Source of the DNA: Candidatus Levyibacteriota bacterium
GTDB lineage: Bacteria > Patescibacteriota > Microgenomatia > Levybacterales > UBA12049
NCBI GenBank assembly: GCA_003152105.1
Contig: PLZJ01000003.1
Span: 134,899-198,898 of the forward strand
DNA: 64,000 nucleotides
Reading direction: 5' to 3'
Within the stretch, counting starts at the first letter, position 1. Each line of letters begins with the position of its first letter. Both the position numbers and the translations under genes were made by a program. Under the pieces are notes generated by a model, which saw nothing but the letters and a program-made list of their open reading frames with translations, searched no databases and had not been told where the DNA came from. Of the stretch, positions 5,327-39,444 are shown piece by piece.

Positions 5327-5368
5327 ATTGTTAAAATCAAAATTATCGATATAACCTTATACTACATA

Positions 5369-9881: not shown

Positions 9882-10825
9882 AAAAAATATCTTTTATAAT
9901 TATAGCTTTTAACGAAGAAAAAACTATTGCACGTTGTATTAAATCTATTATGAAACAAAAAAATCTGTTTGATTACGAAATAATTGTGGTAAATGATAGT
10001 TCAACAGATTCAACTATAAAAGTCGTATCTAAATTCGTTAAAATAAATAAAAGGATAAAACTTCATTCTCTATTAACAAATCAAGGGAGAGGTGCTGCTC
10101 GAAATACTGGAATTAATGCTTCTATTGGTGAATACGTCGCTTTTATAGATGCAGATATTATTTTACCTCAAAACTGGCTAATAACATGCATGAGTTATAT
10201 GGATCGCTATGATGCCGTTAGTGGCATTGCGGTGCCTGATGGTGATGTTAACTATATTTATGTAAAATGTAAACTGAATCCAAAAATTGTATCGCATAGC
10301 ACTATTATAACTGGCAATAATGGCTTATATAATCGAAAAATTTTTGGGTCTGTGATGTTTGACAAAAGTTATAAAAATGGCGAAGACTTTGTTTTCAATC
10401 ATTATTTGAAAAAGAAAAAATATAAAATATATTCAATTACCTCCTTGGTTGTAGAACACAGAGAATCGAAAGATTTTATTAAAGAACTTAAATGGCTTTA
10501 TCAAAGTGGCTTAGGTGCTTCACGCTTATTTAAACAATTCGGTAAATTACGCTTGCCAGATATAACATTTTTTTGTCTATTAATTATTGTTGTCTTAACT
10601 ACCTTGTTAAACTATATACTTCATTTATATATCTTAATACTATTTTTACCTCTTTATGTATTATTTATAAGCACAATACATCTAATTAAAAAATTCCATT
10701 TTCAATTTAACAAATCAATTAGCTTTACTATAGCTATACTTTTAAATAGTATTTTATTAGCTAGTTATTATTGGGGACGTTTTATTGGTATATTTACTGA
10801 AAAAAAGTCAAGGTTCAGTAATTGA
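9878..10825 (+). CDS. glycosyltransferase family 2 with C-terminal TM segments
   Basis: ISFIIIAFNEEKTIARCIKSI, IIVVNDSSTDST, AFIDADI (DxD). C-terminal hydrophobic helices. Start overlaps the previous stop (ATGA). Confidence 0.7.
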   Translation: MKKISFIIIAFNEEKTIARCIKSIMKQKNLFDYEIIVVNDSSTDSTIKVVSKFVKINKRIKLHSLLTNQGRGAARNTGINASIGEYVAFIDADIILPQNWLITCMSYMDRYDAVSGIAVPDGDVNYIYVKCKLNPKIVSHSTIITGNNGLYNRKIFGSVMFDKSYKNGEDFVFNHYLKKKKYKIYSITSLVVEHRESKDFIKELKWLYQSGLGASRLFKQFGKLRLPDITFFCLLIIVVLTTLLNYILHLYILILFLPLYVLFISTIHLIKKFHFQFNKSISFTIAILLNSILLASYYWGRFIGIFTEKKSRFSN

Positions 10826-10857
10826 TAAATAAAACGTATAGTTCAAATTAATATAAT

Positions 10858-11862
10858 ATGAAAAAAACACCTTTTGTAAGTATTTTAATCTGTACATTTA
10901 ACGGTTCTAAAAAAATAGAAAAGTGCTTAAGATCATTGATTAATCAAAATTATCCAAAAAATAAATTTGAATTAATAATTGTTGACGATGGATCTACAGA
11001 TAATACTATTGAGGTAGTATTAAAATTCCCAGTTGTTTTGGTTAAACACCAAAAAAATAAAGGGATCGCAACAGCAAGAAATACTGGGTTAATGAAATCA
11101 CATGGAGAAATTATTGTAAATATTGACGATGATTGTGTTATGGATAAAAATTGGTTGAAAAATTTGATTAAAGCATATGACACCGAAAGCGTAATGGGTG
11201 CAGGAGGTGTATTAATTTTACCAAATAATCCTTCTATCGTAGATGAATACTGTTATCATGTTGGGTATGGGAATCCTACCCCAATTTTATTAGGGAAATC
11301 CAATAACATTGTTGAACGATTTTGGAATTATTTGCATGTCAACTTTACGAATCCTCAATCTAAATACATAAATGGTTCCTTGGTATTTGAGTTTCCAACA
11401 ATTAATTCTTCGTTTAGAAAAAAATATCTAACTAGAATAAATGGATGGAATGAACTTTTCACTACTTCATCAGAAGATCTTGATATATGTAGAAGACTAA
11501 AAAACAGATACCCTAAATTAGATTTTGTTGTAATGCCAAAAGCAAAATTAATACATAAACAAGATTTAACATTGTTAAAATTTCTTTCTAAAGAATACAA
11601 TCGTGGAAAATTAAGAAAGAAATATTACACAATAAAGAATCAAATACCACCATATTTTCCTTTTCCAATTTTATTCATTTTGATTAGTATTATTATAGTA
11701 CTCTTGAAATTATCAGTTATAATTATATTATTTATACCATTTTTACTTTATCCTTGGTGGATTATCAGAGCATTTAATCAAAAAAGAGTTAAAATATTAT
11801 TATTCCCATATTTGCAACTATTACATGAAGAGGCTACAGTTTTAGGGATGTTGATTAATTAA
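10858..11862 (+). CDS. glycosyltransferase family 2 with C-terminal TM segments
   Basis: VSILICTFNGSKKIEKCLRSL, LIIVDDGSTDNT, NIDDDC (DxD). C-terminal membrane helices. Confidence 0.75.
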   Translation: MKKTPFVSILICTFNGSKKIEKCLRSLINQNYPKNKFELIIVDDGSTDNTIEVVLKFPVVLVKHQKNKGIATARNTGLMKSHGEIIVNIDDDCVMDKNWLKNLIKAYDTESVMGAGGVLILPNNPSIVDEYCYHVGYGNPTPILLGKSNNIVERFWNYLHVNFTNPQSKYINGSLVFEFPTINSSFRKKYLTRINGWNELFTTSSEDLDICRRLKNRYPKLDFVVMPKAKLIHKQDLTLLKFLSKEYNRGKLRKKYYTIKNQIPPYFPFPILFILISIIIVLLKLSVIIILFIPFLLYPWWIIRAFNQKRVKILLFPYLQLLHEEATVLGMLIN

Positions 11863-11863
11863 T

Positions 11864-14770
11864 ATGATTTCAATAATAATAATTCTTAAAAATGATTTAG
11901 AAATAATACAAACTATAGGAGGAATAAATGATCAAGATTTTCATGGCGAAGTCGAATTAATAGTTATAGATAGATCAACCATTAATTATCCTCAAATACA
12001 CAGCAGATTTCCTTTAAAATGGGTAAAATTTAATCCAAAAGGCAAACAATTTACTATTCCGGAACAAAGAAATAGAGGACTCACTGAGTCAAAAGGAAAT
12101 ATTATTGTATTTCTGGATGTAAGTTGTATTCCTCAAACAAATTGGTTAACAGAATTAGTAAAACCAATAATAAAGTACAATGAAAAAATTGTGATGGGTA
12201 AAACTGGGTCAATTGGAAAAAAAACATTAAATGACTTATCCTATGATAAATTAGTTAATATTAAATATGTTAATGAAGCACCAACTATAAACATAGCTAT
12301 TTCTAAAGAAATATTTAATACAGTTGGTTTATTTGATGAAAAGCTTGAGTATGGTTCGGACGTAGATTTTAGTTGGCGTGCAATTGATAAAGGATATGCT
12401 ATTCGATATCAACCTTTAGCTCTAGTTAGTCATAACTGGGGCAATAATAAAAGAGAAATAAAACGAACAATTCTATATGGAAAAGCCAGAGCTAGACTTC
12501 TTATTAAACATATTAGAACACGTTGGAAAAACCTGTTTGGTAAAGATTCACCAGTGTTATTATATCCAGCACTTATTATGGGTTTACCAATTACAATCAT
12601 TTATCATTGGTATTTGTTAGTATTTCCATTATTAGTATTAAAAAATACAAAAGAACCAAATCCTATTGGTATAGTATCCAAACATATAATTTATGGGGTT
12701 GGTGTATTAATAGAAATTGTAAATCTATTATTCAAATGTCTAAACAAAATTCTTAAAGAAGCAAACAGTTTAGAATTTACCTACACGCTAGGTCTAGCAT
12801 TATTTTCCGCGATGACTTATGGCTTAATAGTAAATTTTATTTTACCGCAATTTGGTATTAATTCACCTCTTTCATTTCATTATATTTGGCCAGTTTATAT
12901 TTTCTTTTTGTTTCCATTAATTAATCTATTATCAGAAATTAAAAAGTGGTTCAATAAAGATTATTTATCATGGCTGTTAAAGATATTATTTTTATTAAAT
13001 CCTATACTTGCTATAGCAGGAGTAAATTATCTTGATAATACGGGTAATGGATCGCTAGCTTTAGCTTCTGTAGCGTTAATTTGTTTAAATTTTACAATAA
13101 CATTTTTACAAAGAAATTATAGAGATGAAATATTTAAATTATCTTTATATTCATCGGCTATATCATTACTATTAGCTAATTCTCTAAGAAGTCACTTTCT
13201 TGTTGGATGGGATATTCACCAAGAATATTTTGTTTTTCGTCTAACTAATCTTCACAACTTTTGGAATATAAATTCCTTCAGAGATGCTTATAATGCATGT
13301 TTAAGTATTACCATTCTACCAACAATAATTCATAATCTTTCTGGATTTTCACCGTTAACAATATTTCGATTAATATATCCACTAATAATTGCCTTAGTAC
13401 CAATTGTTGTATATCAAGTTGGAACAAAATTAACTGATAAAAAAATAGCCTATGCCGGAGCATTTGCTTTTTTACTCCAAGCTCAATATTTTACAGAATT
13501 ACCATCTCTGCTAAGACAGGGGATAGCTTTTTTGTTTTTTGCACTACTTATTGAAATATTAATTAGCACTAAAATAAGTCAAAAAAGAAGAAACCTTTAT
13601 TTTTTGATATTTGGTATAGGTATGATTTTTTCCCACTATTCCACAACCTACGTAGCATTAGCAATATTATTGTTAGCAAAGATAATCAATGTCATCTTTA
13701 ATAAGTTTTGGTCAGGTAAAGAGTTAACAAGCCCAATAACTTTTAGCTCGTTAACAATTCTTTTTCTTATAACTTTTTTATGGAATACATTAATAACCAA
13801 CACTACACAAGGAATTAATCAAATCTTTATAAATGTCTTTAATAATATTGGTAGCACTTTTTCTCTTGAAAATAAATCTAACATGATCAGAAATATAGTT
13901 TACCAACCTTCCAATAATACAACTGAAGTAATAAATTATTCAAATAAAAGTATGGAAAACATTACTGATCCTCAAAATTATAAAGATTATCAGATTTATC
14001 CGGTGTCATTAAACACTGGTAAATCAGTTTTAATTTCTGATCCAACTCCGATATATTTCCATTTAATAATTCCATGGGTATTTCGCTTTTCAATACTTTT
14101 AGGGTTTATTTATCTACTAATAAATTATTTCAAGAGAAAAGAATCTCCTTTTATTATTAGTATATGCTTTTCAATGTTTATTATAACTTTAAGTATTGGA
14201 ATACTACCATATTTATCAATTAATTATAATTTTGAGAGAGTATTTCAGCAAATGTTAGTATTATTAGCACCTATAAGTATAATTGGTTTTATACATATAA
14301 TTAGGGTTGTTAAAAAAATACCAATTTCCTTACCTATTATCATATTTTTATTATCATATTTCATTCAAACAACCGGATTTGTCGACCATTTTATATATAA
14401 TAGCAGCATATGGATGTATAATAATTCTGGTGAACAATACTACCGTTATTATTCATCAAGTGGTGAAATTAATGGTATCATTTGGCTAGAAAAAAATACT
14501 AATCCAACTATCTTACTGTATGCTGATGAATATTCAAAATTAAGATTTCAAGCATACTCAAATGAAAAATTCAGCTATATTTCTAATCAGATTAACCCAC
14601 CTGTCATAGAAAAAGATAGCTATATTTTCTCAGGTCTAGCTGGAACTAAGGCTAATACTGTATATTCTGAAATCAATAATCAAGCTCTTGAATTTAGTTT
14701 TCCCAATAAATACTTATCTGAAACTAAAAACACAATTTATTCAAACTCAGTTACAAAAATATATAAATGA
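11864..14770 (+). CDS. GT2-domain / large polytopic membrane-domain fusion protein (968 aa)
   Basis: N-terminal ~230 aa with GT2 features (ISIIIILKND..., LIVIDRST, FLDVSC). Followed by ~700 aa with >=14 hydrophobic helices. Start is 2 nt after the previous stop. Confidence 0.6.
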   Translation: MISIIIILKNDLEIIQTIGGINDQDFHGEVELIVIDRSTINYPQIHSRFPLKWVKFNPKGKQFTIPEQRNRGLTESKGNIIVFLDVSCIPQTNWLTELVKPIIKYNEKIVMGKTGSIGKKTLNDLSYDKLVNIKYVNEAPTINIAISKEIFNTVGLFDEKLEYGSDVDFSWRAIDKGYAIRYQPLALVSHNWGNNKREIKRTILYGKARARLLIKHIRTRWKNLFGKDSPVLLYPALIMGLPITIIYHWYLLVFPLLVLKNTKEPNPIGIVSKHIIYGVGVLIEIVNLLFKCLNKILKEANSLEFTYTLGLALFSAMTYGLIVNFILPQFGINSPLSFHYIWPVYIFFLFPLINLLSEIKKWFNKDYLSWLLKILFLLNPILAIAGVNYLDNTGNGSLALASVALICLNFTITFLQRNYRDEIFKLSLYSSAISLLLANSLRSHFLVGWDIHQEYFVFRLTNLHNFWNINSFRDAYNACLSITILPTIIHNLSGFSPLTIFRLIYPLIIALVPIVVYQVGTKLTDKKIAYAGAFAFLLQAQYFTELPSLLRQGIAFLFFALLIEILISTKISQKRRNLYFLIFGIGMIFSHYSTTYVALAILLLAKIINVIFNKFWSGKELTSPITFSSLTILFLITFLWNTLITNTTQGINQIFINVFNNIGSTFSLENKSNMIRNIVYQPSNNTTEVINYSNKSMENITDPQNYKDYQIYPVSLNTGKSVLISDPTPIYFHLIIPWVFRFSILLGFIYLLINYFKRKESPFIISICFSMFIITLSIGILPYLSINYNFERVFQQMLVLLAPISIIGFIHIIRVVKKIPISLPIIIFLLSYFIQTTGFVDHFIYNSSIWMYNNSGEQYYRYYSSSGEINGIIWLEKNTNPTILLYADEYSKLRFQAYSNEKFSYISNQINPPVIEKDSYIFSGLAGTKANTVYSEINNQALEFSFPNKYLSETKNTIYSNSVTKIYK

Positions 14771-15846
14771 AAATTAAAGTATTAGTATATCCTTACGACA
14801 TAAATCCATACCAGAACTTACTTTATAATCATATGCGCAATGGAGTTGAGATAAAATATTTGAAAGGATCAACTTCATCTCAAACAATAAACAATATATT
14901 GCTTCCATTATTACTTATAAAATACAGAGTAAAAGGGTATAAAATTTTTCATCTCCACTGGACCTATGGCTTTACTTTTCCTGGCAAAAATTATCTATCA
15001 CTTTTTTTTTCAACAATATATTACTATTTAATTCTAACTTTTATTAAGTTTACAGGATATAAAATCGTTTGGACTGTTCACAATATTCTTCCTCATGAAA
15101 AACAATTTATCAATGATATTTATGCAAGTAAAGTTTTATCAAAATTATGTAATGTTAAAATAGTCCATTCAAAATCCGCAATTGATGAAATGAGACATTT
15201 AGACTTTGACATTAAAAATATAAATATAATTCCTCATGGAAACTATATTGAATCATATGTAAATGAAATTACTAGAAAGGAAGCGAGAAGAATATTAAAT
15301 ATTAATAATAATGATTTTATTTTTCTTTTTTTTGGGAGAGTTGAAAAATATAAAGGTATTGAATATATGTTAAATGAATTTTCAAAAATTAATAATCACA
15401 ATATTAAACTTATAATATGCGGGGCTTGTACTGATCCAGAACTATTAACAAAAATACAATTATATATTACTAACAGTAATATAACATTTATAAATAAACA
15501 CATTAATAATAATGATATACAAATATTCATGAATGCATCTGATACTGTAATTTTACCATTCAATAAAATAAACTCAAGTGGCTCTGCAATTCTAGCATTA
15601 TCATTCGCTAAGACCATTATTGCACCACAAAAAGGAACATTAAATGAAATGCCAAAAAATGTTGGTTATTTTTATAGTAATGGAAATAATAATGGTTTAT
15701 ATAAAAGTATGATTAATTCAATTTCAAAAAGAAATATGCTTGAAATTATAGGTCAGAATGGATATGAATATATTAAAACTTTTTCTTGGAACAATATTTC
15801 AAAAAAAACGTTAAGACTCTATAAAGAATTAGAACAAAAGGATTAA
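14767..15846 (+). CDS. glycosyltransferase family 1-like (GT-B)
   Basis: FIFLFFGRVEKYKGIEYML and NASDTVILPFNKINSSGSAILALSFAKTIIAP resemble GT4 C-terminal domain. Overlaps the upstream gene by 4 nt. Confidence 0.55.
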   Translation: MKIKVLVYPYDINPYQNLLYNHMRNGVEIKYLKGSTSSQTINNILLPLLLIKYRVKGYKIFHLHWTYGFTFPGKNYLSLFFSTIYYYLILTFIKFTGYKIVWTVHNILPHEKQFINDIYASKVLSKLCNVKIVHSKSAIDEMRHLDFDIKNINIIPHGNYIESYVNEITRKEARRILNINNNDFIFLFFGRVEKYKGIEYMLNEFSKINNHNIKLIICGACTDPELLTKIQLYITNSNITFINKHINNNDIQIFMNASDTVILPFNKINSSGSAILALSFAKTIIAPQKGTLNEMPKNVGYFYSNGNNNGLYKSMINSISKRNMLEIIGQNGYEYIKTFSWNNISKKTLRLYKELEQKD

Positions 15847-15848
15847 TA

Positions 15849-16973
15849 TCAGAGTACCGATTTATATGCATCAAGTGTTTCTTTTGCGCAACGTTTCCAA
15901 CTAAACTTTCTTGATTGATTTATGCCTTTTTTTATAAGGATATTTTGCAAATTATTATTATCTAAGATTTTATTCATTTGTAAACATATTTCATTTATAT
16001 CATAGGGATCTACTTTTATTGCGGCGTCACCGACAATTTCGGATAAAGATGAACTTGAAGAAGTTATAACAGGGACCCCTGATGCCATAGCCTCAAGTGG
16101 AGTAAAGCCAAAACCTTCATATTTTGAAGGATAAACAAATAAATCAGCCCTATGATAATAACTTAATAATTGTCTCTCGTCTATAAAACCTAGAAAATGG
16201 ACAAATTTGTTTAAATTTAATTTATGTATAATCTGGTTAAGCTTAAAAAACTCATCACCATCTCCACCAATTATTAATCTAACATCATTCCTTTTTTTAG
16301 CTAATTTATTAAACGCATATATAGTCTCGTATATTCCCTTTCTTTTTGTAAGTCCACCTAAAAAAAGTATTATTTTTGTATTACTTGATTTTCTTTGTAA
16401 AGGATAAAATTTATTTGTATCTATTCCTGGATAAATTACTAGTATTTTATTTTCAGATATTCCAAGAACATTAATTAAATCTTCTTTAGTTTTTGTAGAG
16501 ACAGCCAATAGAAGTTGGCTTTTTTTTGCGTAGCTAGAATAAGTATTAAAGTAATATTTTTCAAATTTATATCTTGATTCAGAAACCAAAGGAATAATGT
16601 CATGAAAAGTAGTGATTAAAGGTTTTTTATATAATTTTATAGGCATGATTGATTCACTTGGAGAAATTGCATGATAAACTTGTGAATTAATATCTTTCAA
16701 TTCATTCAGCATTGAAAATTTGTTATTTCTAAACCTAGAATAATAGTGAAATTCATTTTTTATTGGATTAATATAACTTTTAATAATATCAGGAATAAAA
16801 GGAGTAATAGGATTTTTTTTACTATTTATAGATGGTGATTGAAACGTATCAGATATAACGTTTAATTGTAAATTTTTATCAAGTAATTTTAATTCCTTAA
16901 CAAGCGTAGTAGTATATCTTCCTATACCATCTTTGCTATGATAATATCTTCCTGCAATAATAGAAACATTCAT
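15849..16973 (-). CDS. glycosyltransferase family 1 (GT4-type)
   Basis: [37 protein letters not shown] (GT4 E-x7-E motif). 374 aa. Confidence 0.75.
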
Positions 16974-17884
16974 AGTTTATGGGAATAACTTCCTGTTCTG
17001 CCAATATAGCCATCTAAAATTCCTTGTAAAATTACCTTAGCCATCTTGAATTCTTTTTTAATTATATGTTTATAAATTTGATAAAATGATTCTTTTAAAA
17101 ATATGGAATTAAAAATTAAATTATCAACAAAAGAATAATTATTTTTATAAAAAAATATTAAATTTCTAATAAAATAATACCTAACATTTTCTTTTCCAAT
17201 AAGATCACTTGATTTTCCAATTTTATGCCAAACTTTTGAGCTTGGTATCGCATAAAGAGAAAAATCATTTTTTACAGCCATAAGACTATAATCCATATCT
17301 TCGATATATAAAAAGTATTCTTCTTTATATAAACCTATTTTATCAATTACACTTTTTTTAATTAACATACTACAGCCAGTAAGAAATTCTACTTTTCTAT
17401 TATTTTTAAATTGACCTCTATCAATTTTTGATTTATTTTTATCGATAAAAGGCCAGGAATTCCTAAAATTGAAGTTAAGTCCTGATGACCATATTACTTC
17501 AGGTTTATCAGCTAAGTAAATAAAAGGACTCAAAATACCTATTTTCTCATCAGTTTCACCAACAGAAACTAATTCAGAAAGAAAATTCTTACTAACAACA
17601 GTGTCATTATTTAATAATAGAATATAATCAGCATCATGTTTTAATGCATATCTTATCCCCACATTACATCCTCCTGAAAAACCTAAATTTTTCAAATTTT
17701 CTAATAATTTAATATTAGGGAATTTTGATTTTATTTCCTTAACTGAGTCGTTTGTCGATGCGTTATCAATCAAAATTATTTTATAATTTTTATAGTCTAT
17801 TTTGAGCAATGATTTTAGACATTCTATGGTGTCTTTATAGCCATTCCAATTTAAAATAATAATGTAAACTAATGGGTATTTCAT
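16970..17884 (-). CDS. glycosyltransferase family 2
   Basis: LVYIIILNWNGYKDTIECLKSL, IILIDNASTDDS, DYILLLNNDTVV (DxD). 304 aa. Overlaps neighbours on both sides by 4 nt. Confidence 0.75.
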   Translation of the reverse strand: MKYPLVYIIILNWNGYKDTIECLKSLLKIDYKNYKIILIDNASTNDSVKEIKSKFPNIKLLENLKNLGFSGGCNVGIRYALKHDADYILLLNNDTVVSKNFLSELVSVGETDEKIGILSPFIYLADKPEVIWSSGLNFNFRNSWPFIDKNKSKIDRGQFKNNRKVEFLTGCSMLIKKSVIDKIGLYKEEYFLYIEDMDYSLMAVKNDFSLYAIPSSKVWHKIGKSSDLIGKENVRYYFIRNLIFFYKNNYSFVDNLIFNSIFLKESFYQIYKHIIKKEFKMAKVILQGILDGYIGRTGSYSHKL

Positions 17885-19128
17885 AAGACTTTAATCCAAA
17901 CGATTATTGAGTATAGTATTGCAATTATACCTTCTCCCAAAAACCAACCATAACCAAGAGTTACTAGTCCCTTGGGAATAACAAAATGAAGTATCGATAA
18001 TAAAATTAAAGGTCCCAAGATGCACATCATCAGAAGCAAATTTAACCTACCTTTAATATTTAATATAGTACTTAAAGTACCATTAATAGAAGTAAAGATC
18101 ACAGATAATGCAAGTAATTGAAGCAAGAAAATGCCTTGACTGGAATATTCTTTACCAAAAAAAAGGAGTATATACTTCCCAAATAAAATTATAAAAATAA
18201 TTGAAGGAATAAGGATCATTATTGTAAATTTAACGGACTTGATAATATATTTTTTCAGTTCTTTATCATTATTACTACCTTCTGCAAATAAGGACTGATT
18301 TATAGATGATTGGATAGCATTTAAAAGTGTAATAATTGACATATCAATGTAGTAATAAGCGGCTTGTTTAGGTCCTAAGCTTGATGCAATCATTAGGGGA
18401 AGAAGATTTAATGGTAAACTTGCAGTGAAACTAGCTATAAAATTAATGAACGATAAATTAAATATTTTGTAAAATATATCCTTTTTTATTGTTAATTTAA
18501 ACTTATATCCAAAAAATTTGTATAAAATATATAAACTAATAAAGAAAGTTATAATCGAACCGAAAGATGTTGAAAAAAATATTGCAAAAGCGCCAAATGA
18601 AATTAATAAAAATGGGAGAAAAATCTTAAAAATACTTCCAATGATAGTTTTAAATAATATATACTTTGTATGTCTATATGCTATAAATACGTTACTATAT
18701 AATGCATCTAAGCTTCCGAAAACTGCAAATATAATATAAATGAATATATAGGCATTATTTTGTTTAAGAAATATTAATTTTGAAGAAAAATAGTTTAATC
18801 CCGAAATATATATAATAGAAATTGCAATTGTTGATATTAAAATAATTGTAATTACAGTATTAATTATATCTACTTTATTTTCAGATTTTGGCAAATAACG
18901 TATAATTCCAGTATTAAATCCAAATAAACTTAGACCTGTTATTAAAGCTAATGAAGAAATCAAGACCGTAGCTAGTCCAATTTGCTCAACCGAAAATAAT
19001 CTTGTATTAATAACCCAAAAAATAAACCCAAAAGACGACATTACTAAGGTGTTTAGCATCAAATAAATAGAATTTCTATAAATAGAATCATTCATAAAAT
19101 GACTATATAAATCTTTAATTAAACCCAT
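17881..19128 (-). CDS. polysaccharide biosynthesis protein / Wzx-like oligosaccharide flippase (MOP superfamily)
   Basis: 415 aa with ~12 hydrophobic helices. Position inside a glycosyltransferase cluster and size/topology typical of Wzx/MurJ-type flippases. Confidence 0.6.
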   Translation of the reverse strand: MGLIKDLYSHFMNDSIYRNSIYLMLNTLVMSSFGFIFWVINTRLFSVEQIGLATVLISSLALITGLSLFGFNTGIIRYLPKSENKVDIINTVITIILISTIAISIIYISGLNYFSSKLIFLKQNNAYIFIYIIFAVFGSLDALYSNVFIAYRHTKYILFKTIIGSIFKIFLPFLLISFGAFAIFFSTSFGSIITFFISLYILYKFFGYKFKLTIKKDIFYKIFNLSFINFIASFTASLPLNLLPLMIASSLGPKQAAYYYIDMSIITLLNAIQSSINQSLFAEGSNNDKELKKYIIKSVKFTIMILIPSIIFIILFGKYILLFFGKEYSSQGIFLLQLLALSVIFTSINGTLSTILNIKGRLNLLLMMCILGPLILLSILHFVIPKGLVTLGYGWFLGEGIIAILYSIIVWIKVL

Positions 19129-20080
19129 GTTTAAATCCTTTCGTCAGTAAATCTGGATAAATATACTTCATAAATAAAAGAAAATAAATAAGAAATAAAA
19201 TCATTCCTAAATAAGTATGGAAAAGATTTATCATAATCTCAGGAGATGTTAGAAGTCCAATCCAAATTAAGATATACACTCTTAAGCAATTTACAATAAA
19301 TAGACCCGTTAATAAGGGGAAATAATATATGAAAACTTTAAAGTGGCTTAATTTGTTCCAATCAAATATTGAAACTAGAAAATATAATGCAGTAAAAAGA
19401 TATATAGAATCTATACCAGAACAAGATTCTTCTATTATAACAACAAAGTTTCGGATAAATAACCCTCTAGGAGGCACTATACTTAATGGTTTAGTGGTGT
19501 ATGAAAACATAAAATATATGACATGTAGAACTATTGAACTTAAATAAGGCCATAGATTCCAAACAAAAAAGATAGACAATTCAAAAAGTATGGATAATCC
19601 AAGACACACTAAAATTGTTTTTATATTTTGTTTAAAGAACTCAAAAGTATAACTAATTCCAAAACATCCCAATATTAAAAATGTTGGGATAGATATAAAA
19701 ATAAGATGAGTAAGAATTAATTGTGGACTATAAAATAAGTTATCTTCGCTCAATATTAATTGTTTAGCTAAATATATAAATATTGGAATTAAAACTAATG
19801 ATAAAAATATTGATACAATATCTATTTTGTTAAATGTCGGGACTTTAATTTTAATTATTTTATCCCGATTAATTAAAATATATGCCATAAAAGCAAATAA
19901 TAATATTTTCCCTAAATTTGGGTATATATAAAAGTAGTATTTATAAAGAAGTTGAGATGGTATTATGAAAAATCCTAAAAATCCTGACTCAACTATAAAT
20001 ATTATCGAGAAAATTATTATACGAACTAGTAATGATTTATGAAATGATAATTTAGATTTCAACATCAAAGAATTATACAT
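19115..20080 (-). CDS. exosortase/archaeosortase-family intramembrane transpeptidase (putative)
   Basis: 321 aa, ~8 TM helices. Contains EESCSGIDSIY (Cys-Ser-Gly active-site-like motif) and N-C-L-R (NxxR) about 45 residues later, as in exosortase/archaeosortase families. Sits in an exopolysaccharide locus, as EpsH-type exosortases do. A PEF-CTERM substrate candidate is at 27256-27723. Confidence 0.45.
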   Translation of the reverse strand: MYNSLMLKSKLSFHKSLLVRIIIFSIIFIVESGFLGFFIIPSQLLYKYYFYIYPNLGKILLFAFMAYILINRDKIIKIKVPTFNKIDIVSIFLSLVLIPIFIYLAKQLILSEDNLFYSPQLILTHLIFISIPTFLILGCFGISYTFEFFKQNIKTILVCLGLSILFELSIFFVWNLWPYLSSIVLHVIYFMFSYTTKPLSIVPPRGLFIRNFVVIIEESCSGIDSIYLFTALYFLVSIFDWNKLSHFKVFIYYFPLLTGLFIVNCLRVYILIWIGLLTSPEIMINLFHTYLGMILFLIYFLLFMKYIYPDLLTKGFKHGFN

Positions 20081-20326
20081 TTTCTTAATCTTAAAGGAAA
20101 GTCAAAAAAAAACTGAATTTATAATGATCTCTTAAAACTTAAAAAGTGTATAGCCTATGTTATATTTTAATCAACCTATTAGGATATGATTTACTCAGAT
20201 TTTATAACACAAATCCTAACTTATTTGAATTTGATATACTACAAAGTCAAAACGCAAGTATTCATTCTTGAGATAAGAAAATAATTCTATTATAATTGAA
20301 AATTAAATTCCCTATATTTTACTAAC

Positions 20327-21826
20327 TTGATTATTATGTATAAAAGCCTCATATCAATAATTAAAAAACATATTGATCTGTTATTTATTGCTTTGGGTTT
20401 ATCTTTAGCACTCAGTTTAAGTCTATATTATCTTGGTAATAAAAGTTTATTTTTGGATGAAGTAGGTTCATTTACCATCACACAAAATTGGACGCACATG
20501 CAGAGCATTTTTAGAAATTCTGAAGGCAATATGTGGTTTTACTACATTCTTTTATACTTCTGGACTAGACTAGGCACGAGTGAAATTATATTAAGAAGTT
20601 TGTCTGCGATTTTTGCTATAGCAACAATTATTCCATTATTTTATCTTACAAAACATATTTTTGGGAATAGAACTGCACGTATCTCAATGATATTATTCCC
20701 AATCAATATTTTTTTTGTTAAGAATGCTCAGTTTGCTCGTGGATATAGTTTATTAATACTTCTTACCACTATCTCATCATATTTATTCTTGCTTTATGTT
20801 CATACATCTAAAAAACGCTACTTATTACTTTATATTATACTAAGCGTACTAAGTGTATATACTCATTTATTTGCTCTATTTGTAATTGCTTCACAATTAT
20901 TCTCTTTAATGTTTCTTCAAAATAAAAAATCTTGGAAATATTTTGCCGTAGCTTATGCTTTAATTCTCGTTTTAATAATACCTATATTTATTTCTCCTTC
21001 CATACATTCCCAGCAAATTAATTGGATAATGAAGCCTACATTAATTTATTTTGTGGGTATATATGCTATTTTATCCGGCGATTTTCTCCCGACTACTCTT
21101 ATATCGAGTTTATTGATCCTATGGTATTTATACTCTATCTGGAATCATGGTAAATTTAAATCTATTATTAATGATTATAATTTTAAATTTGTAGTGATAA
21201 GTTTTTTATTACCATGTATTGCTTCATTTATTTTTTCATTAACTGTAAAACCAATCCTTGTTTTGGAGTATTTAGTTATTTGTTTAGTACCTTTTATACT
21301 ATTACTATCGGCAGCCTTTGACACTATTTATGGTACAAGATTATTTAAAATTATATTGGTTTTATTTATTTTATTTTCCATTATACGTTTACATGGCTGG
21401 TATTCTGAAGATCAAAGATTTGCAGTTGCGATACCTAATAATACTGAGAATTGGAAAACTGCAGCTCAATTAGTTTCAAATTATGCAAAAAATAATGATG
21501 CGTATTTAGTTTTACCCACTTATTCGCTATCATGTTTTAACTATTATTATAATCAAGAAAATTTAAACACAAAAGTTACTGAACTAAAATTGATTATTAA
21601 TAATTCCTCAATCGAAGTTATCTCTAACAATCACATATCACCATTATCAACAATTTTTCAAAAGTATAAAAGGATATGGTATATGCAAGATGTAGTTGCC
21701 GGAGTTGGATACAATAAAATGGAATCAGATATTAATAAGTTATTAAATAAAAAGTATACGTTGATGAGTGGCGTAAAGTTCTTTAGATTAACTGTGTATC
21801 TTTATGAACTTAAGAAAAATAAGTAA
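20327..21826 (+). CDS. polytopic membrane glycosyltransferase-like protein (GT39/ArnT/PMT-like, putative)
   Basis: 499 aa. N-terminal two thirds has ~11 TM helices, C-terminal third is soluble. Architecture matches GT-C enzymes (ArnT / dolichyl-phosphate-mannose protein mannosyltransferase family). Confidence 0.45.
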   Translation: MIIMYKSLISIIKKHIDLLFIALGLSLALSLSLYYLGNKSLFLDEVGSFTITQNWTHMQSIFRNSEGNMWFYYILLYFWTRLGTSEIILRSLSAIFAIATIIPLFYLTKHIFGNRTARISMILFPINIFFVKNAQFARGYSLLILLTTISSYLFLLYVHTSKKRYLLLYIILSVLSVYTHLFALFVIASQLFSLMFLQNKKSWKYFAVAYALILVLIIPIFISPSIHSQQINWIMKPTLIYFVGIYAILSGDFLPTTLISSLLILWYLYSIWNHGKFKSIINDYNFKFVVISFLLPCIASFIFSLTVKPILVLEYLVICLVPFILLLSAAFDTIYGTRLFKIILVLFILFSIIRLHGWYSEDQRFAVAIPNNTENWKTAAQLVSNYAKNNDAYLVLPTYSLSCFNYYYNQENLNTKVTELKLIINNSSIEVISNNHISPLSTIFQKYKRIWYMQDVVAGVGYNKMESDINKLLNKKYTLMSGVKFFRLTVYLYELKKNK

Positions 21827-21832
21827 TACTAT

Positions 21833-22549
21833 TCAAAAGAATAAAATATTATGAGATATGAAATAGAAAGTTATTTGAAAAAGTAGATAAAATATCATCA
21901 CTAAATAAATATTTTTCCAGAAGAAATATAATAATGTGCCACAAAGTCCATAGAGTATAATTATTATTAGTTGTTCATTATTAGTAGTACTATGAAAAAA
22001 TCCATATAGTATTATCGTAAAGATAACTCCAGTTATTGGATTTATCAAGTTGCAAACTGCATTTTGTATTAGTCCTTGAAAATATAATGCTTCACTAACT
22101 GATGAAAGTAAGATAATTAAAGCTGACAAAAATAATGGTAAATTGCTATGAGGCAAATATAGCCCAGCTAAAATACCAAATAATACAGCATAAATCAAAC
22201 TTAAAATTATAAACTTAAATGATCTTAGGTGATAAAGCTTATTTTTTAAAGGTAAGAATGAATAAAATAGTTCAGAAATTATAAGAAGAGATGCGAAAAT
22301 AAATATATCTCTAACTATTAAAGATTGTATAAATAAAGATATAACAAATAATGACAAAAAAGGAATAACACTCAAGTAAGCAAATAGCACTTCTGCATAT
22401 AAATCAAAAATATCATAAATTGTTAAGAACAATAAAAGAATGACCATAGCTGATGTAACTAGTATTCCAACCTGAGGATATAAAACTAAATTAACCTGAG
22501 ATATAAAAAGGAGCGTGAAAACGCATATTAGTAAGTATAAGTGTTTCAT
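21833..22549 (-). CDS. CPBP-family (CAAX protease/Abi-like) intramembrane metalloprotease, putative
   Basis: Polytopic. Motifs SVSEALYFQG (EExxxR-like motif 1) and ILYGFFHST (FxxxH motif 2). Confidence 0.4.
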   Translation of the reverse strand: MKHLYLLICVFTLLFISQVNLVLYPQVGILVTSAMVILLLFLTIYDIFDLYAEVLFAYLSVIPFLSLFVISLFIQSLIVRDIFIFASLLIISELFYSFLPLKNKLYHLRSFKFIILSLIYAVLFGILAGLYLPHSNLPLFLSALIILLSSVSEALYFQGLIQNAVCNLINPITGVIFTIILYGFFHSTTNNEQLIIIILYGLCGTLLYFFWKNIYLVMIFYLLFQITFYFISHNILFF

Positions 22550-22755
22550 GTCAAATGGTTCATTAAAAATAGGATAAAATAAAGTGAACAGGTTATTATT
22601 ACAGGGTATAAAAGCTTTCTAGCTCGTTGTATATTCTCAGTTTTATTAATTGAAGTAAATTCTAACAATAATAGGGCAAAAATCGTAATTAGTGTAATTG
22701 CAATTATAGCAAAATTACGTAAAACATATTCATAATTAAGGTAAGAAAAAAACAT
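22546..22755 (-). CDS. small membrane protein
   Basis: 69 aa, two hydrophobic helices. Overlaps downstream gene start by 4 nt. Confidence 0.3.
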   Translation of the reverse strand: MFFSYLNYEYVLRNFAIIAITLITIFALLLLEFTSINKTENIQRARKLLYPVIITCSLYFILFLMNHLT

Positions 22756-22906
22756 AATTTAATTATAGCAATAAACTGATAAATAAATATTAGCTATAAA
22801 TAGTTGAATGAAAATTATAAATTTATTTAAAAATAACTCAAAACATCCCAGTATAAAAGAATAGGATTAAGTTATATAATATTGATTACAAAATTATTAT
22901 GTTAAT

Positions 22907-23776
22907 ATGAAATTCTTAAAAACGATTGTGGTTATTCCTGTCGGTCCAACTTGTCAAGTTAACTTTATTTTAGATACTTTGAATAGCATTTATTATTATA
23001 TGAATCAAACTTCAACTAAGGTTATTTTGATAGACGATAGTCAAATCGAAACAGGAAAGTTGATTTCAAAAACTTATTCCAAAGTAGAGGTTTTAAAAAC
23101 TCCTTACAATAGAGGTAAAAATGCCGGCTTGTATTATTCATTAGCAGAAGGATTTAACTATGCTTATAAAAACTATAAATTTAAAGTATTATTAAGACTC
23201 GATACTGATGCTCTAATCATAGGGAAAAATCCAGAAAATAAAGCGATCGAATACTTTGAAAAGAATAAAAAAATTGGAATTTTAGGTTCTTATAAATATA
23301 GTTATAATGGTAGACTTCGTGATTTTTCATGGCCAGAACGACAATTAATTTTAGAAAGCTCAATACTCTCTTTGTTAAAAGGATTATATCGAATAAAAGG
23401 TATTTTAACTTTAAGGACAATTACTAAGCAGGCAAAGAAAAACGGTTATATTTTAGGCGAACATTGCATGGGTGGCGCATGTTTTTATAGCTACAACTGT
23501 ATTAAATCTCTATATGATAATAATTATTTACCCATAAAAAATATTCAATGGAGCAAATTGCAAGAAGATATGATTTTTGGATTACTTATTAAATCTATAG
23601 ATATACATATGCATGATTTTGTCCTTGGTAACGATACATTAGGAGTTAAGTGGAGAGGTTTACCGGATAAACCATCTGAATTAATTAAGAAAAAAAAGAT
23701 TATACATTCGACAAGGTTTTTTGAAGACATGGACGAAAAAGCTATTCGTGATTATTTTAAATCAAAAAGAAATTAG
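22907..23776 (+). CDS. GT-A fold glycosyltransferase-like protein (GT2-like)
   Basis: IVVIPVGPTCQVNFILDTLNSI, KVILIDDSQ and LRLDTDALI (DxD-like) motifs. 289 aa. Confidence 0.45.
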   Translation: MKFLKTIVVIPVGPTCQVNFILDTLNSIYYYMNQTSTKVILIDDSQIETGKLISKTYSKVEVLKTPYNRGKNAGLYYSLAEGFNYAYKNYKFKVLLRLDTDALIIGKNPENKAIEYFEKNKKIGILGSYKYSYNGRLRDFSWPERQLILESSILSLLKGLYRIKGILTLRTITKQAKKNGYILGEHCMGGACFYSYNCIKSLYDNNYLPIKNIQWSKLQEDMIFGLLIKSIDIHMHDFVLGNDTLGVKWRGLPDKPSELIKKKKIIHSTRFFEDMDEKAIRDYFKSKRN

Positions 23777-24460
23777 ATGAGAAACAAATTAAAGTCTACT
23801 TTTTATAATCCATTTGATTTTTCATCAAAACCTAATTGGTATTATGGATTATACCGAAAAGAGATGATTAAATATGTACCAAGAACGGCAAAAACAATAC
23901 TTGATGTTGGTTGCAGTAGTGGATTATTTGGAGCTCAATTAAAAAAAGTTTTAGGAGCCGAAGTATGGGGTATTGAATTAAATAAAGAATCTGCATTAAA
24001 AGCTAATGCTAAACTGAGTAAAGTTTTAATTGGAGATATTAATGAATTAATTAAGGACATTCCTGATTCATATTTTGATGCAGTAGTTTTCAATGATGTA
24101 TTAGAACATCTAGTTGATCCCTTTGAAGTACTGTTAAAAATGAAAAAAAAACTTGCTCCTGAAGGTGTAATTGTATGTTCTCTACCAAATATCAGATACA
24201 TAGTAACGTTAAAGCGTTTATTAATCAATAAGCAGTGGAAGTACGAAGACAGTGGAATTATGGATAAAACTCACTTAAGGTTTTTCACTCTTAATAGTAT
24301 TAAGTATATGTTTAAGTCTCTAAATTTTGAGATATTAAAAATTGAAGGTATTAACTCAATTAATTTATGGTTTGTACCATTATTAATCATAATTACATTT
24401 GGATATTTTTCTGATACTAAATATCAAGAATTTGCCTGCGTAGTAAAACCATCTTCGTAA
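23777..24460 (+). CDS. class I SAM-dependent methyltransferase
   Basis: Motif I ILDVGCSSGLFGAQL. Post-I acidic residue (GIELNKE). Motif resembling Methyltransf_11/23 (VVFNDVLEHLVDP). Start is 1 nt after the previous stop. Confidence 0.7.
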   Translation: MRNKLKSTFYNPFDFSSKPNWYYGLYRKEMIKYVPRTAKTILDVGCSSGLFGAQLKKVLGAEVWGIELNKESALKANAKLSKVLIGDINELIKDIPDSYFDAVVFNDVLEHLVDPFEVLLKMKKKLAPEGVIVCSLPNIRYIVTLKRLLINKQWKYEDSGIMDKTHLRFFTLNSIKYMFKSLNFEILKIEGINSINLWFVPLLIIITFGYFSDTKYQEFACVVKPSS

Positions 24461-24502
24461 ATTAAGTAGTTTATTAATAACATATAAATATATGCTAAAA
24501 TA

Positions 24503-26029
24503 GTGCTAGTGAACACTGATATTGCATTGGGAAAACAAGTAAACCAAATTAAGATCGAGAATAAGATAAACAGAAATGTTTATTTGTTAATTACTCTTAC
24601 TTGCTTATTATTTATAATAGTCTTTGCTTTAATATTAGTGAAATTATTGTTTCGTAAACCCTCGGAGCAGCTATATTTAGCTTCTACTTCTCAAAGTCAA
24701 GCATCTATTAACACAAGTAAATTTCCAAATTTAAATCCCTCAAAGCCTTATTACGGAGTAAATGTTGATATGGATCAACTTATTCCAGGATCTAGCAATT
24801 ATTCCATAAACGCGAAAGGCGAGGATTATATAGATATAGCACATCATTTAGGAATAAATCTCTTCCGTATAGATAATGCTATAAGAGGATTTCCGGGAAA
24901 TACTATTTATTCTGAAGCACAATGGAATTATGTACTTGGTAAAATGCAAAAAAATGGAATAAAGGCAATTATACTTATTGAAGGAGTGGATGGTGATGCA
25001 AATCTAAAATCTGATAATATAAATAACGCGTATCTGAACTTCATTCAAAAATATATTATAGATTCTAATGTTGGATATAATTCAGATGTAATAGGTATTG
25101 ATTTAAAAAACGAACCTACATTATCTACTAACAATGTATTATATTTAAAACAAGCAACACAATTAGTTAAAAATAAATACTCTAAAATGCCAGTCTGTGT
25201 AGGGGGTTGGAGAATTGATACTGGGAAGAAAAAAAATGATGGAACTCGTTATTATATTTACAATCAACCTCTTGATGCATCATCACTTTCATCAATAGTA
25301 GATTTCTATTGTGTTCATGTTTATCATTTTGATGAAAAAGACTCTCATGGTAATTATCCCGACCCAACAACATTAACAACAAATTATCTACAACAAATAT
25401 CATCAGTATCAAAGAATAAACCCATATTAATTGAAGAATTTGGTGCAGCAAATAATACTACTATTACTGATCAGGAAACACTTGGAAGTGCTCAAGAACA
25501 AGCAAATGTTTACAACGGCGTATATCAATCAATTATTAAAAATAGAGCTATCAATGTTATTGGTTCTACGGCATATTTATTTGCACCTAGGGGTTCTATA
25601 CCTGATAGCTGGGCAATCTTAAGTAAAAATGGTAATGATATTGATTTCGCAGCTTATGTTTTGCAAAAATATTCTTTAGACAAGTCTGACATATCTCTTT
25701 CATTACCATTTAAAAATATTCCGCAAACATATATATATAAAAATAATACTAGTGGTTCAACACAAACTGTAAAAATAGATGGTAGTATAGGTTTAGTTCT
25801 ACAACTACCTAAATATTATAAATATGTTGGGTTACTATCTTCTAAAAATTTAGCTAATCTTAATGAGGCAGTTCAATTTGATTCAAAAAACAATAATTAT
25901 GATACTGTTATTTATGCAGCTCATTTAGGAATAGTTAAATTTATAGTTTATAATAATCCACTTTGTACATTTGGAAATAGCAACTGTATAAATAATATAG
26001 TTTATTCGATAACTCTCAACATTAAATAA
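24503..26029 (+). CDS. membrane-anchored glycoside hydrolase family 5-like protein
   Basis: N-terminal TM (LLITLTCLLFIIVFALILV). Motifs IGIDLKNEPT (GH5 NEP acid/base) and ILIEEFGA (nucleophile Glu context). Confidence 0.6.
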   Translation: MLVNTDIALGKQVNQIKIENKINRNVYLLITLTCLLFIIVFALILVKLLFRKPSEQLYLASTSQSQASINTSKFPNLNPSKPYYGVNVDMDQLIPGSSNYSINAKGEDYIDIAHHLGINLFRIDNAIRGFPGNTIYSEAQWNYVLGKMQKNGIKAIILIEGVDGDANLKSDNINNAYLNFIQKYIIDSNVGYNSDVIGIDLKNEPTLSTNNVLYLKQATQLVKNKYSKMPVCVGGWRIDTGKKKNDGTRYYIYNQPLDASSLSSIVDFYCVHVYHFDEKDSHGNYPDPTTLTTNYLQQISSVSKNKPILIEEFGAANNTTITDQETLGSAQEQANVYNGVYQSIIKNRAINVIGSTAYLFAPRGSIPDSWAILSKNGNDIDFAAYVLQKYSLDKSDISLSLPFKNIPQTYIYKNNTSGSTQTVKIDGSIGLVLQLPKYYKYVGLLSSKNLANLNEAVQFDSKNNNYDTVIYAAHLGIVKFIVYNNPLCTFGNSNCINNIVYSITLNIK

Positions 26030-26049: not shown

Positions 26050-27207
26050 TTATTGCACTTTTTGTTGACTTATTAACAAAATTGGTATAATTTCTCCCAG
26101 ATTTATTATTTTATTAGCTTGATGATAAGCAAAAGTATTGTCTGAATTATTCTTGGTATCAAAAACCTTCCCTGCTAAATAATATTCTCCTTGTTCAGTT
26201 TGATTACTTTGTTGTGTGTATATAATTTCATTACCTTTCCATAAGTAAGGAATAAGCGTGGCGCTGTCTGTTGCTGTATAGAGAGTTTGAGTTTCACCGT
26301 TTTGTAAATTTAGCGTCATTAGCTTATCTTTGAAACTAGTTAATGCAATGTTTTTCGTTAAATCAGAAGGAAAAATAAGTAATTGTAATTGCTTTAAAGT
26401 GGAATCAGAGATATTAATTTGACTTGAAACTTGTTGTGTAAATTTTTGACTAAACAGTCCATTATAAGTTTGATAATAGAGTGTATTTGTTTCACTATTA
26501 CAATATATATTAGCTATATTTGCAACCGGTGTGGTAAAAATTCTTGTTGCAGTTTTTTTCTCAAGAGAAAATAAGTATAAGTGGCCTAATTGGGTTTGAA
26601 AAATTACACTAGTTTCATAATGTGACCAACAAATTGGTTGTGGATTACTTCCTAATTCTTGTATGTAAGGGATTTCTTGCGGGGTTGAACTAGAAATAGT
26701 TTGTAGTTGAAATTCTGAAGTATTTTGTTTTGTATTAGGATCAATCACTTTTGTAACAAATATGGCTTTTGAATTGCTAGGAGACACAGTAAGTGGCAAT
26801 GATGTTGTTTCAACAGGATATAAAAAATGACTAACAAGATTTAAATTTGCTGCGGAAGTAGTATTTTGAAGGTACAAATGTGAATTAAATATCGAAAATG
26901 ATGTATATGGAGTTTGATTTGGTTTGGTTTCATATGCTCCATAAATTCCTTGTTGCGAATTGGATTCGATTGTATATTGATAGAGTCTATCAAACGAATT
27001 GTTGTAATCATAATAGAGGAATGTTGTTTGTGGGGTAGGAGTAGGAGTTACAGTTATGGTTGGAACTTTTGAAGTAGATATTTTAGGTAAATGCGGCTTT
27101 TGTCCCATTAAAATAGACAGGCCAAATACCAATATAATACCTACTACAGCCAAAAATGTTGCATGAAAATGACGAGTAAACATATGGGTATTATATCTCA
27201 TTACCAC
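26050..27207 (-). CDS. membrane-anchored secreted protein with Pro/Thr linker (possible beta-propeller-like repeats)
   Basis: N-terminal TM (FLAVVGIILVFGLSILMG), TVTPTPTPQTT linker, Tyr/Thr/Ser-rich repetitive body. Confidence 0.45.
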   Translation of the reverse strand: MVMRYNTHMFTRHFHATFLAVVGIILVFGLSILMGQKPHLPKISTSKVPTITVTPTPTPQTTFLYYDYNNSFDRLYQYTIESNSQQGIYGAYETKPNQTPYTSFSIFNSHLYLQNTTSAANLNLVSHFLYPVETTSLPLTVSPSNSKAIFVTKVIDPNTKQNTSEFQLQTISSSTPQEIPYIQELGSNPQPICWSHYETSVIFQTQLGHLYLFSLEKKTATRIFTTPVANIANIYCNSETNTLYYQTYNGLFSQKFTQQVSSQINISDSTLKQLQLLIFPSDLTKNIALTSFKDKLMTLNLQNGETQTLYTATDSATLIPYLWKGNEIIYTQQSNQTEQGEYYLAGKVFDTKNNSDNTFAYHQANKIINLGEIIPILLISQQKVQ

Positions 27208-39438: not shown

Positions 39439-39444
39439 AATAAA

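Follow-up and report, generated by a model that had tools for sequence, protein, structure and literature searches.

An exosortase/archaeosortase-family gene and its candidate substrate family beside a Wzx-type flippase in a Levyibacteriota glycan locus

The enzyme and its predicted active site

We analysed a stretch of 64,000 nucleotides from Candidatus Levyibacteriota bacterium (assembly GCA_003152105.1, contig PLZJ01000003.1, positions 134,899 to 198,898), called the window below. Its minus strand carries a gene (19115..20080, ATG start) for a membrane protein of 321 amino acids, which lies within a glycan-biosynthesis locus and which an earlier look at the letters and their open reading frames (ORFs), the sequence-only reading, had proposed to be exosortase/archaeosortase-like. 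On the same strand, the gene overlaps that of a Wzx-type lipid-linked glycan flippase (17881..19128), and a gap of 7,176 nt separates it from the gene of a 155-amino-acid protein (27256..27723) that we predict to be the cognate substrate. The enzyme ORF was present as described; public gene calls (P0001) use an alternative start at Met6 (nt 20065), giving 316 amino acids, and the sequence upstream favours neither start.

The proposed family identity held, since both generic models scored above their curated cut-offs: PF09721 with 29.0 bits against 25.7 (E 9e-7, profile positions 30-249 of 254) and TIGR04178 with 42.1 bits against 23 (E 8e-11). TIGR04178 was also matched by all 27 sampled relatives. 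A better match to Wzy or O-antigen ligase families, which would have spoken for another identity, did not appear in Pfam at E<=1. At the subfamily level, no cut-off was reached by the enzyme. The best-scoring named subfamily was XrtE (TIGR04162), which reached 41.3 bits where 150 are required and aligned at profile positions 147-294 of 516 only. Among the exosortase A/B models (TIGR03109, TIGR03113, TIGR02602), XrtA reached 19.8 bits (cut-off 208) and 8TM_EpsH 10.3 (105.6); XrtV gave 12.7 bits (313), and the ArtA to ArtG models gave no match. A word-indexed search returned 64 homologue clusters, all of them with PF09721, and the few named ones are called 'archaeosortase/exosortase family protein'. 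In the exhaustive search, 493 cluster representatives passed E<=1e-3, of which 27 also passed E<=1e-30. Judged by these comparisons, the enzyme is an intact and probably active member of the exosortase/archaeosortase family, and its sequence places it in an unnamed clade of bacteria of the candidate phyla radiation (CPR, Patescibacteria) and a few DPANN-labelled metagenome-assembled genomes (MAGs).

Haft 2006 defined three family motifs, Cys-x-Gly, Asn-x-x-Arg and His-x-x-x-Gly, which lie at the outer ends of three consecutive helices in proteins with at least eight transmembrane (TM) helices. The window enzyme carries Cys220-Ser-Gly222 with the proposed nucleophile (19415..19423), Asn264-Cys-Leu-Arg267 (19280..19291), and His288-Thr-Tyr-Leu-Gly292 (19205..19219), all on the minus strand. 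The first two had been pointed out in the sequence-only reading and were found again: the segment EESCSGIDSIY is in the translation, with its Cys at position 220, and the N-x-x-R motif, placed about 45 residues past this Cys, spans residues 44-47 downstream of it. The His motif goes beyond what had been listed. In the alignment of the 27 relatives, down to 25% identity, C220, S221, G222, N264, R267, and H288 were invariant; the Gly of His-x-x-x-Gly is replaced by Ser or Ala in the DPANN-labelled branch, and the His is kept clade-wide. Later work regards Cys, Arg, and His as the family's presumed catalytic triad, and in archaeosortase A (ArtA) the conserved Cys and Arg are required if PGF-CTERM substrates are to be processed at the C-terminus.

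From the alignment of 27 sequences, AlphaFold produced a confident model (mean pLDDT 89.8, pTM 0.83). Using its helix boundaries, the mean Lys plus Arg count per loop over these sequences alternates (3.7/1.1/3.6/0.6/3.4/1.5/3.3/0.7/2.2), and we therefore predict eight TM helices with both termini inside and C220, R267, and H288 outside. The model and the positive-inside pattern agree with the eight helices proposed earlier, and the Cys, together with the Arg and the His, is predicted at the outer membrane face, as would be needed for an enzyme of this type. C220 is predicted in the outside loop between TM5 and TM6, before TM6, R267 near the outer end of TM7, and H288 in the outside loop just before TM8; this predicted arrangement is exactly that described for EpsH. 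Foldseek against the PDB returned nothing related (best E 2.5, TM score 0.24), and the PDB sequence search was empty. Thus, the PDB offers no solved homologue of the enzyme, and the model shows no likeness to a solved ligase, polymerase, or flippase fold.

The tail-bearing protein and its pairing with the enzyme gene

The predicted substrate (27256..27723, minus strand) starts with a signal peptide at about residues 1-26, continues with a transthyretin-like beta-sandwich (residues 34-114) that holds two invariant Cys, and ends with a tripartite C-terminal signal. In this sorting tail (27259..27354, minus strand; VPEFSTTLGAIAGFLAIGTFFLMRKRNLHKVS), a VPEF signature abuts a Gly/Ala-rich helix and is followed by an RKR cluster. 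Barring a false positive on the enzyme itself, this is the only ORF of the window with a motif-helix-basic tail. The sequence-only reading had mentioned a protein with a matching sorting signal 7 kb from the enzyme gene: the protein is real, but it is not a bona fide PEF-CTERM protein, because TIGR03024 aligned at all 25 model positions with 14.2 bits against a cut-off of 23. The VPEID-CTERM model (TIGR04161) did not match the window tail. Among 28 tails, the PEF-CTERM model matched two at all and the VPEID-CTERM model one weakly; the LPXTG models and PEP_CTERM (TIGR02595) stayed below threshold on the tails. The P-E-P signature was never seen, and P-E-[FYL] stands in its place.

To describe the signal, we used 62 distinct tails and a pattern that allowed Asp in place of Glu (never seen) and did not demand Gly at +3. 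Pro-Glu was present in all 62, preceded by Val or Ile at -1 in 58 and followed by Phe, Tyr, or Leu in 59. Gly occupied +3 in 57 tails and +7 in 45, and next came a hydrophobic stretch some 19 residues long and a cluster of Arg/Lys. As in PEP-CTERM and PGF-CTERM, the helix follows directly on the VPEFG-type motif, with no spacer between them.

The main evidence for an enzyme-substrate relationship comes from related loci. We collected 47 of them from species-representative genomes, with 10 kb of flank on either side per genome, and counted the pairing over 46. Their ORFs were searched with the 155-amino-acid protein of the window and, independently, with the tail pattern, and both agreed. Of the 46 loci, 43 had one or more small tail-bearing ORFs no farther than 1.3 kb from the enzyme gene, which upholds the proposal that such a protein is the substrate. 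The paired ORFs encode 68-236 amino acids (median 153), usually directly upstream on the same strand and abutting or overlapping the enzyme gene, in up to four copies. Within about 770 kb of loci, 64 of 65 tail ORFs were at most 1,231 nt from the enzyme gene, the exception being that of the window, and none of the 65 was a large or unrelated protein carrying the tail. The reciprocal test gave the same picture: four tail proteins found by profile all have an Exosortase_EpsH gene abutting, and three of the four are on contigs outside the first set of loci. Altogether, this looks like a dedicated cassette with a single substrate family rather than a sorting system with many substrates.

Regarding the substrate ectodomain, the model is a beta-sandwich like the 82-residue transthyretin-like/CarboxypepD_reg domains (target-normalised TM score 0.68-0.73, rmsd 2.6-3.3 Å). 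CarboxypepD_reg was sub-threshold on the window protein and is a precomputed annotation on close homologues. Besides the V-P-E-F motif, the invariant residues are two Cys and one Tyr (C56, Y71, C81). Every source that names the family calls it 'hypothetical protein'. The tail proteins contain 22% Ser plus Thr. Directly before the VPEFG motif, 20 of the 62 tails (32%) have an N-x-S/T sequon, for example N-V-S-V-P-E-F-G, and the window protein has N-F-S there (27355..27366); elsewhere in the same tail proteins, 9% of 8-residue windows contain one, in counts uncorrected for relatedness. The gene directly downstream of that of the substrate, likewise on the minus strand (26050..27207), encodes a 385-amino-acid protein that has a single TM helix at its N-terminus, a linker rich in Thr and Pro, and numerous N-x-S/T sites, and that matched nothing in Pfam or NCBIfam.

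The informatively labelled relatives are assigned to Patescibacteria, Daviesbacteria, Microgenomates, and Saccharibacteria/Saccharimonadales, in addition to MAGs labelled as Woesearchaeota and Pacearchaeota. Two DPANN-labelled loci (L047, L048) have the same enzyme, the same tail protein, and a PMT_2 neighbour; a third (L045) has two enzyme paralogues and no tail ORF. The Pfam content of the neighbours in DPANN-labelled loci did not confirm an archaeal origin, and the presence of the enzyme in these MAGs could be cross-domain sharing or mis-binning.

The flippase and the surrounding glycan genes

The gene that overlaps the enzyme ORF encodes a Wzx-type flippase of the MOP superfamily (17881..19128, minus strand; PF01943 with 56 bits, PF13440, MatE). 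The 14-nt overlap with a Wzx-like flippase gene that the sequence-only reading had noted is there (ATGGGTTTAATTAA), and the overlapping ORF is indeed of the Polysacc_synt/MatE type; translational coupling of enzyme and flippase is therefore likely. Among the related loci, after profile iteration, a Wzx-type flippase gene was within 10 kb in 34 of 47, almost always downstream, and it was directly adjacent or overlapping in eight, the window included. By a rough estimate, for genomes of about 1 Mb with few such genes, a flippase gene would fall within 10 kb on either side by chance in a few percent of cases.

Some distant relatives carry both functions in a single ORF, in either order: Polysacc_synt then the exosortase domain in P0105, and the exosortase domain then Polysacc_synt/MatE in P0117. 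Both retain C-S-G, N-x-x-R, and F-H-T, and their linkers, rich in Lys/Arg, connect termini with a predicted cytoplasmic location. A third protein (P0089) is a fusion of the enzyme to a polysaccharide pyruvyl transferase. The fusion loci lie at L051:6001-8202 and L052:1988-4189. Other long proteins were also seen, such as P0114 (802 amino acids), where the exosortase domain is fused to a C-terminal half of about 490 amino acids with no assigned family, and several exosortase-domain proteins of 426-512 amino acids with an N-terminal extension of 200-300 amino acids, likewise with no assigned family.

Upstream of the enzyme gene, the window has a gene for an Rce1-like/CPBP intramembrane protease (21833..22549, minus strand; PF02517, 30.1 bits against a cut-off of 22.4), and 20 of 47 loci likewise have a same-strand CPBP gene upstream; one was also seen in L051 and in L053. 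In L051 the order is CPBP, tail protein, small membrane protein, and fusion. An ORF of 69 amino acids with two TM helices (22546..22755, minus strand), tentatively assigned to the cassette, shares 4 nt with the start of the CPBP gene. L001 has it as a called gene, and in L053 a 72-amino-acid ORF of the same layout precedes the CPBP gene (L053:2998-3216); these small ORFs could be a conserved membrane partner of the protease.

Divergently oriented beside the enzyme gene, a PMT_2 membrane glycosyltransferase of the GT-C type is encoded on the plus strand (20327..21826; PF13231, 26.5 bits against 26.1), and PMT_2 genes also neighbour the cassette in L002, L047, L048, and L053. Seven more glycosyltransferase genes occupy 8748..17884, which Pfam assigns to GT4, GT2, GT2, a GT2-DUF2206 fusion, GT1, GT4, and GT2. 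Others in the window are a GT2 gene (3184..4101), a sub-threshold GT2 (22907..23776), and a GT2-like ORF outside the Pfam scan (7982..8746). The count of nine glycosyltransferases given in the sequence-only reading was about right: seven of GT1, GT2, or GT4 type, PMT_2, and one GT2 by Pfam, plus two weaker candidates. The GT2-DUF2206 fusion is a multi-TM protein of 968 amino acids (11864..14770, plus strand). Of the 47 related loci, 22-27 contain DUF2206-type genes, which may serve there as the membrane glycosyltransferase or polymerase. A canonical Wzy_C gene is present in the enzyme-substrate locus of L054 and L055 (L054:899-2131, L055:871-2088), where we also saw two Polysacc_synt flippase genes and an opposite-strand Glucodextran_B/Big_6 protein.

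The glycosyltransferase block has a GC content of 24-27%, against 32% for the whole window. More broadly, genes within 8748..26029, among them those of the enzyme, the flippase, and the CPBP protease, have 24-29% GC and the flanking ones 31-39%, and the substrate gene is just outside this block. Low GC between flanks of higher GC points to a glycan island that can be replaced, although amino-acid composition may account for part of the contrast.

Further along the window, genes of the GH5 cellulase family (4142..7315 and 24503..26029), one with a type I dockerin domain, flank the glycan locus, and there are a CBM_4_9 protein and a small DUF1616/CBM-like protein (7530..7979). Cytochrome bd oxidase subunits I and II (38509..40779, minus strand) are encoded in this CPR-type genome, with a luciferase-like monooxygenase adjoining. 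A protein at 1794..2450 (minus strand) has two CxxC-x17-CxxC domains (TIGR04272, E 9e-31). Together with the oxidase genes, a DnaB gene, one tRNA, and the overall 32% GC fit a small bacterial genome. Our promoter and terminator scan of 16.8-28.4 kb gave 79 promoter-like sites, with 86 +/- 9 in shuffled sequence.

Proposed mechanism, alternatives and known systems

Family membership with an intact, predicted outward-facing site and genomic pairing with one tail family are directly supported. From there, we consider it probable that the locus encodes an exosortase-type enzyme with a single tail-bearing substrate family of about 150 amino acids, each member with one predicted disulfide-containing beta-sandwich, whose sorting is coupled to a flippase-delivered glycan. 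The substrate sequence implies that Sec would export the protein and that the C-terminal helix would keep it tethered, with the VPEF motif placed at the outer leaflet. Following the homology with ArtA and the conserved triad, Cys220 would attack in or next to the motif, the helix and the basic tail would be removed, and an acyl-enzyme would form, from which the new C-terminus would be handed to an acceptor. Sorting may be coupled to the lipid-linked glycan that the flippase would deliver to the same membrane face, because the flippase is probably translationally coupled to the enzyme here, linked to it in most relatives, and fused to it in some. The acceptor could be this glycan, or the glycan could be used to glycosylate the substrate; in both cases, the ultra-small cells would end up with a surface glycoprotein or glycoconjugate. 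The Rce1-like/CPBP protease would be a frequent accessory that possibly clears the released helix, for which the exosortase-CPBP fusion XrtE is a precedent. In a narrower version, the enzyme would transfer the beta-sandwich protein directly onto the lipid-linked glycan delivered by the coupled Wzx, as a minimal CPR module possibly shared with DPANN; we regard this as rather unlikely. If true, the acceptor nucleophile of exosortases, long hypothesised, would be identified in a reconstitutable three-gene system.

Several points weigh against the coupled sorting system that we propose. On the enzyme side, no named Xrt or Art subfamily model was reached by the window protein or its 27 relatives, and the third experimentally critical residue of ArtA is Arg253, an Arg and not the His. 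On the substrate side, no curated NCBIfam C-terminal sorting model passed its threshold on tails or whole proteins, and at +3 the window tail carries Ser in place of the usual Gly, a residue seen there in 5 of the 62 tails. Three loci had no adjacent tail gene (one with masked sequence at the expected spot), and the scan covered 10 kb on either side per genome, so further substrates elsewhere are possible. The pair of the window is itself split by 7.2 kb, with plus-strand GT2-like, methyltransferase, and GH5 genes in between, and the enzyme gene has 23.7% GC against 38% for the substrate gene. Each fusion is known from one metagenomic contig and may be an artefact. Disruption of EpsH in Methylobacillus left exopolysaccharide (EPS) production unaffected, and the glycan-acceptor step is one that we purely infer. 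The arrangement in the window resembles a cassette that has been rearranged and whose glycan island may have been replaced.

Among the alternatives, the strongest keeps the same enzyme and substrate and takes a membrane lipid as acceptor, as for Haloferax ArtA, with the glycan genes as neighbours through separate glycosylation of the substrate or the envelope. In this family, the sole experimentally established outcome is ArtA-dependent lipid anchoring of the C-terminus, and ArtA substrates are heavily glycosylated surface proteins, with which the Ser/Thr content of the tail proteins and the sequons beside their motif would agree. However, co-glycosylation leaves the enzyme-flippase fusions in both orders and the pyruvyltransferase fusion unexplained, and no lipid genes of the PssA/PssD type were seen in the locus. 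We hold a lipid acceptor possible, with clear doubts. The enzyme could also be a purely hydrolytic release protease, which clips the anchor and sheds the beta-sandwich protein to the medium or the glycan layer with no covalent transfer. No exosortase or archaeosortase has been shown to carry out transpeptidation; whether exosortases, which are widespread but by experiment far less studied than archaeosortase A, transfer their substrates, and onto what, is not established. The substrate is small and soluble-looking, as shedding would suit. Yet transfer is favoured by the resemblance of the Cys/Arg/His site to the sortase triad and by the close linkage to envelope-glycan genes, and a tethering helix with a dedicated enzyme would be needless for mere release, which makes this explanation unlikely in our view.

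Three other explanations were rejected. The several adjacent paralogues in many loci could mean that the enzyme builds a fibre by joining the beta-sandwich proteins head-to-tail, as class C sortases do with pilins, which would explain one to four tandem paralogues, and among many beta-sandwich matches there was weak fold similarity to the Gram-positive shaft pilins SpaA and BcpA. However, the pilin matches are weak and generic, the family has no invariant Lys nucleophile, and many loci, the window included, are single-copy; on these grounds, we find a fibre very improbable. Equally improbable is that the Rce1-like/CPBP protease cleaves the VPEFG tail, as CPBP-type myxosortases cleave MYXO-CTERM, and that the exosortase-like protein does something else. 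CPBP-family sorting proteases do exist, and the gene recurs upstream on the same strand, but it does so in under half of the loci, whereas the pairing of tail and enzyme is nearly universal, and signals processed by CPBP proteases have an invariant Cys in the motif, which VPEFG lacks. The reading to which we give the least credence makes the enzyme a Wzy/WaaL-like polymerase or ligase, or a second flippase, filling a Wzy role that seems missing: no Wzy_C gene was recognised in the locus of the window, hydropathy once led to the guess that EpsH is a flippase or polymerase, and the enzyme gene is operonic with Wzx. It found no family match at E<=1 and no fold match (Foldseek best E 2.5, TM score below 0.25), and it disagrees with the invariant protease-type Cys/Arg/His motifs, with the adjacent tail substrate in 43 of 46 loci, and with the separate canonical Wzy_C gene of L054 and L055.

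Coming back to the sorting system that we propose, its general type is known, namely an exosortase with a cognate C-terminal signal in a polysaccharide locus, and annotation pipelines label the enzyme generically. What is new is the unnamed clade, the unnamed [VI]PE[FYL]G signal, the single conserved adjacent substrate family, and the CPR (possibly DPANN) distribution; the recurrent coupling or fusion of an exosortase to a Wzx flippase appears to be undescribed. Literature searches found nothing on exosortases or archaeosortases in Patescibacteria, the candidate phyla radiation, or Saccharibacteria, and only unrelated matches for VPEID/XrtE; no curated model or literature was found for either the enzyme clade or the substrate family. 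These observations suggest two annotation models, an Xrt-type subfamily and a 'VPEFG-CTERM' sorting domain. They also point to a conserved and previously unannotated surface-protein system in CPR/Patescibacteria, whose envelopes and host-attachment structures are poorly understood. Most known systems are hard to dissect because many diverse substrates are scattered in the genome. With one enzyme, one adjacent substrate family, and a coupled flippase, the locus is thus a compact candidate for reconstitution.

CPR bacteria are generally regarded as lacking an outer membrane, and a host without one is a feature shared with the ArtA/PGF-CTERM system of Haloferax volcanii. Both systems also share the protein family, the Cys and Arg required for activity, a tripartite signal that abuts the helix, and a glycosylated surface protein as substrate. 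In contrast, the window enzyme does not match the ArtA model (TIGR04125), the motif is VPEFG instead of PGF, and ArtA has up to dozens of dispersed and diverse substrates, whereas here one small family lies beside the enzyme gene. ArtA has no Wzx flippase linkage or fusion, and a lipid acceptor has been shown for it.

The second archaeal system, ArtC (TIGR03762) with PEF-CTERM (TIGR03024) of methanogens, has the same P-E-F tripeptide; its signal model was the best match to the window tail, and 8 of 27 clade members matched ArtC weakly. However, the window enzyme had no ArtC match at E<=1, the window tail scored 14.2 bits against 23, the taxonomic range differs (CPR/DPANN here), and here the substrate is dedicated and adjacent. 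Closer by score is XrtE (TIGR04162)/VPEID-CTERM, the best-scoring named subfamily for all 27 members, whose motif also starts with V-P-E. XrtE pairs the exosortase with a fused C-terminal CPBP domain, whereas here CPBP recurs as a separate upstream gene in under half of the loci. Similarity was limited to 41 bits against 150 with the core region alone aligned, and the CPBP protein and the tail of the window fall outside the XrtE and VPEID models.

With XrtA/EpsH and PEP-CTERM of Gram-negative EPS loci, the enzyme shares the three motifs, eight TM helices, the location in a polysaccharide locus, and a proposed sortase-like mechanism, but it scored 19.8 bits against the XrtA cut-off of 208. PEP-CTERM hosts all have an outer membrane, and their diverse substrates, with a median of eight, are mostly encoded in single-gene operons under sigma-54/PrsK/PrsR control. 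Here, one to four homologous substrates adjoin the enzyme gene, and no regulators of the sigma-54/PrsK/PrsR type were seen. Finally, sortase/LPXTG of Gram-positives differs in the unrelated fold of its extracellular beta-barrel enzyme, against a polytopic membrane protein here, and in the spacer that LPXTG has before the helix. The analogy is functional and lies in an enzyme with Cys/Arg/His, a tripartite signal at the C-terminus, and the clustering of substrate genes with the enzyme gene.

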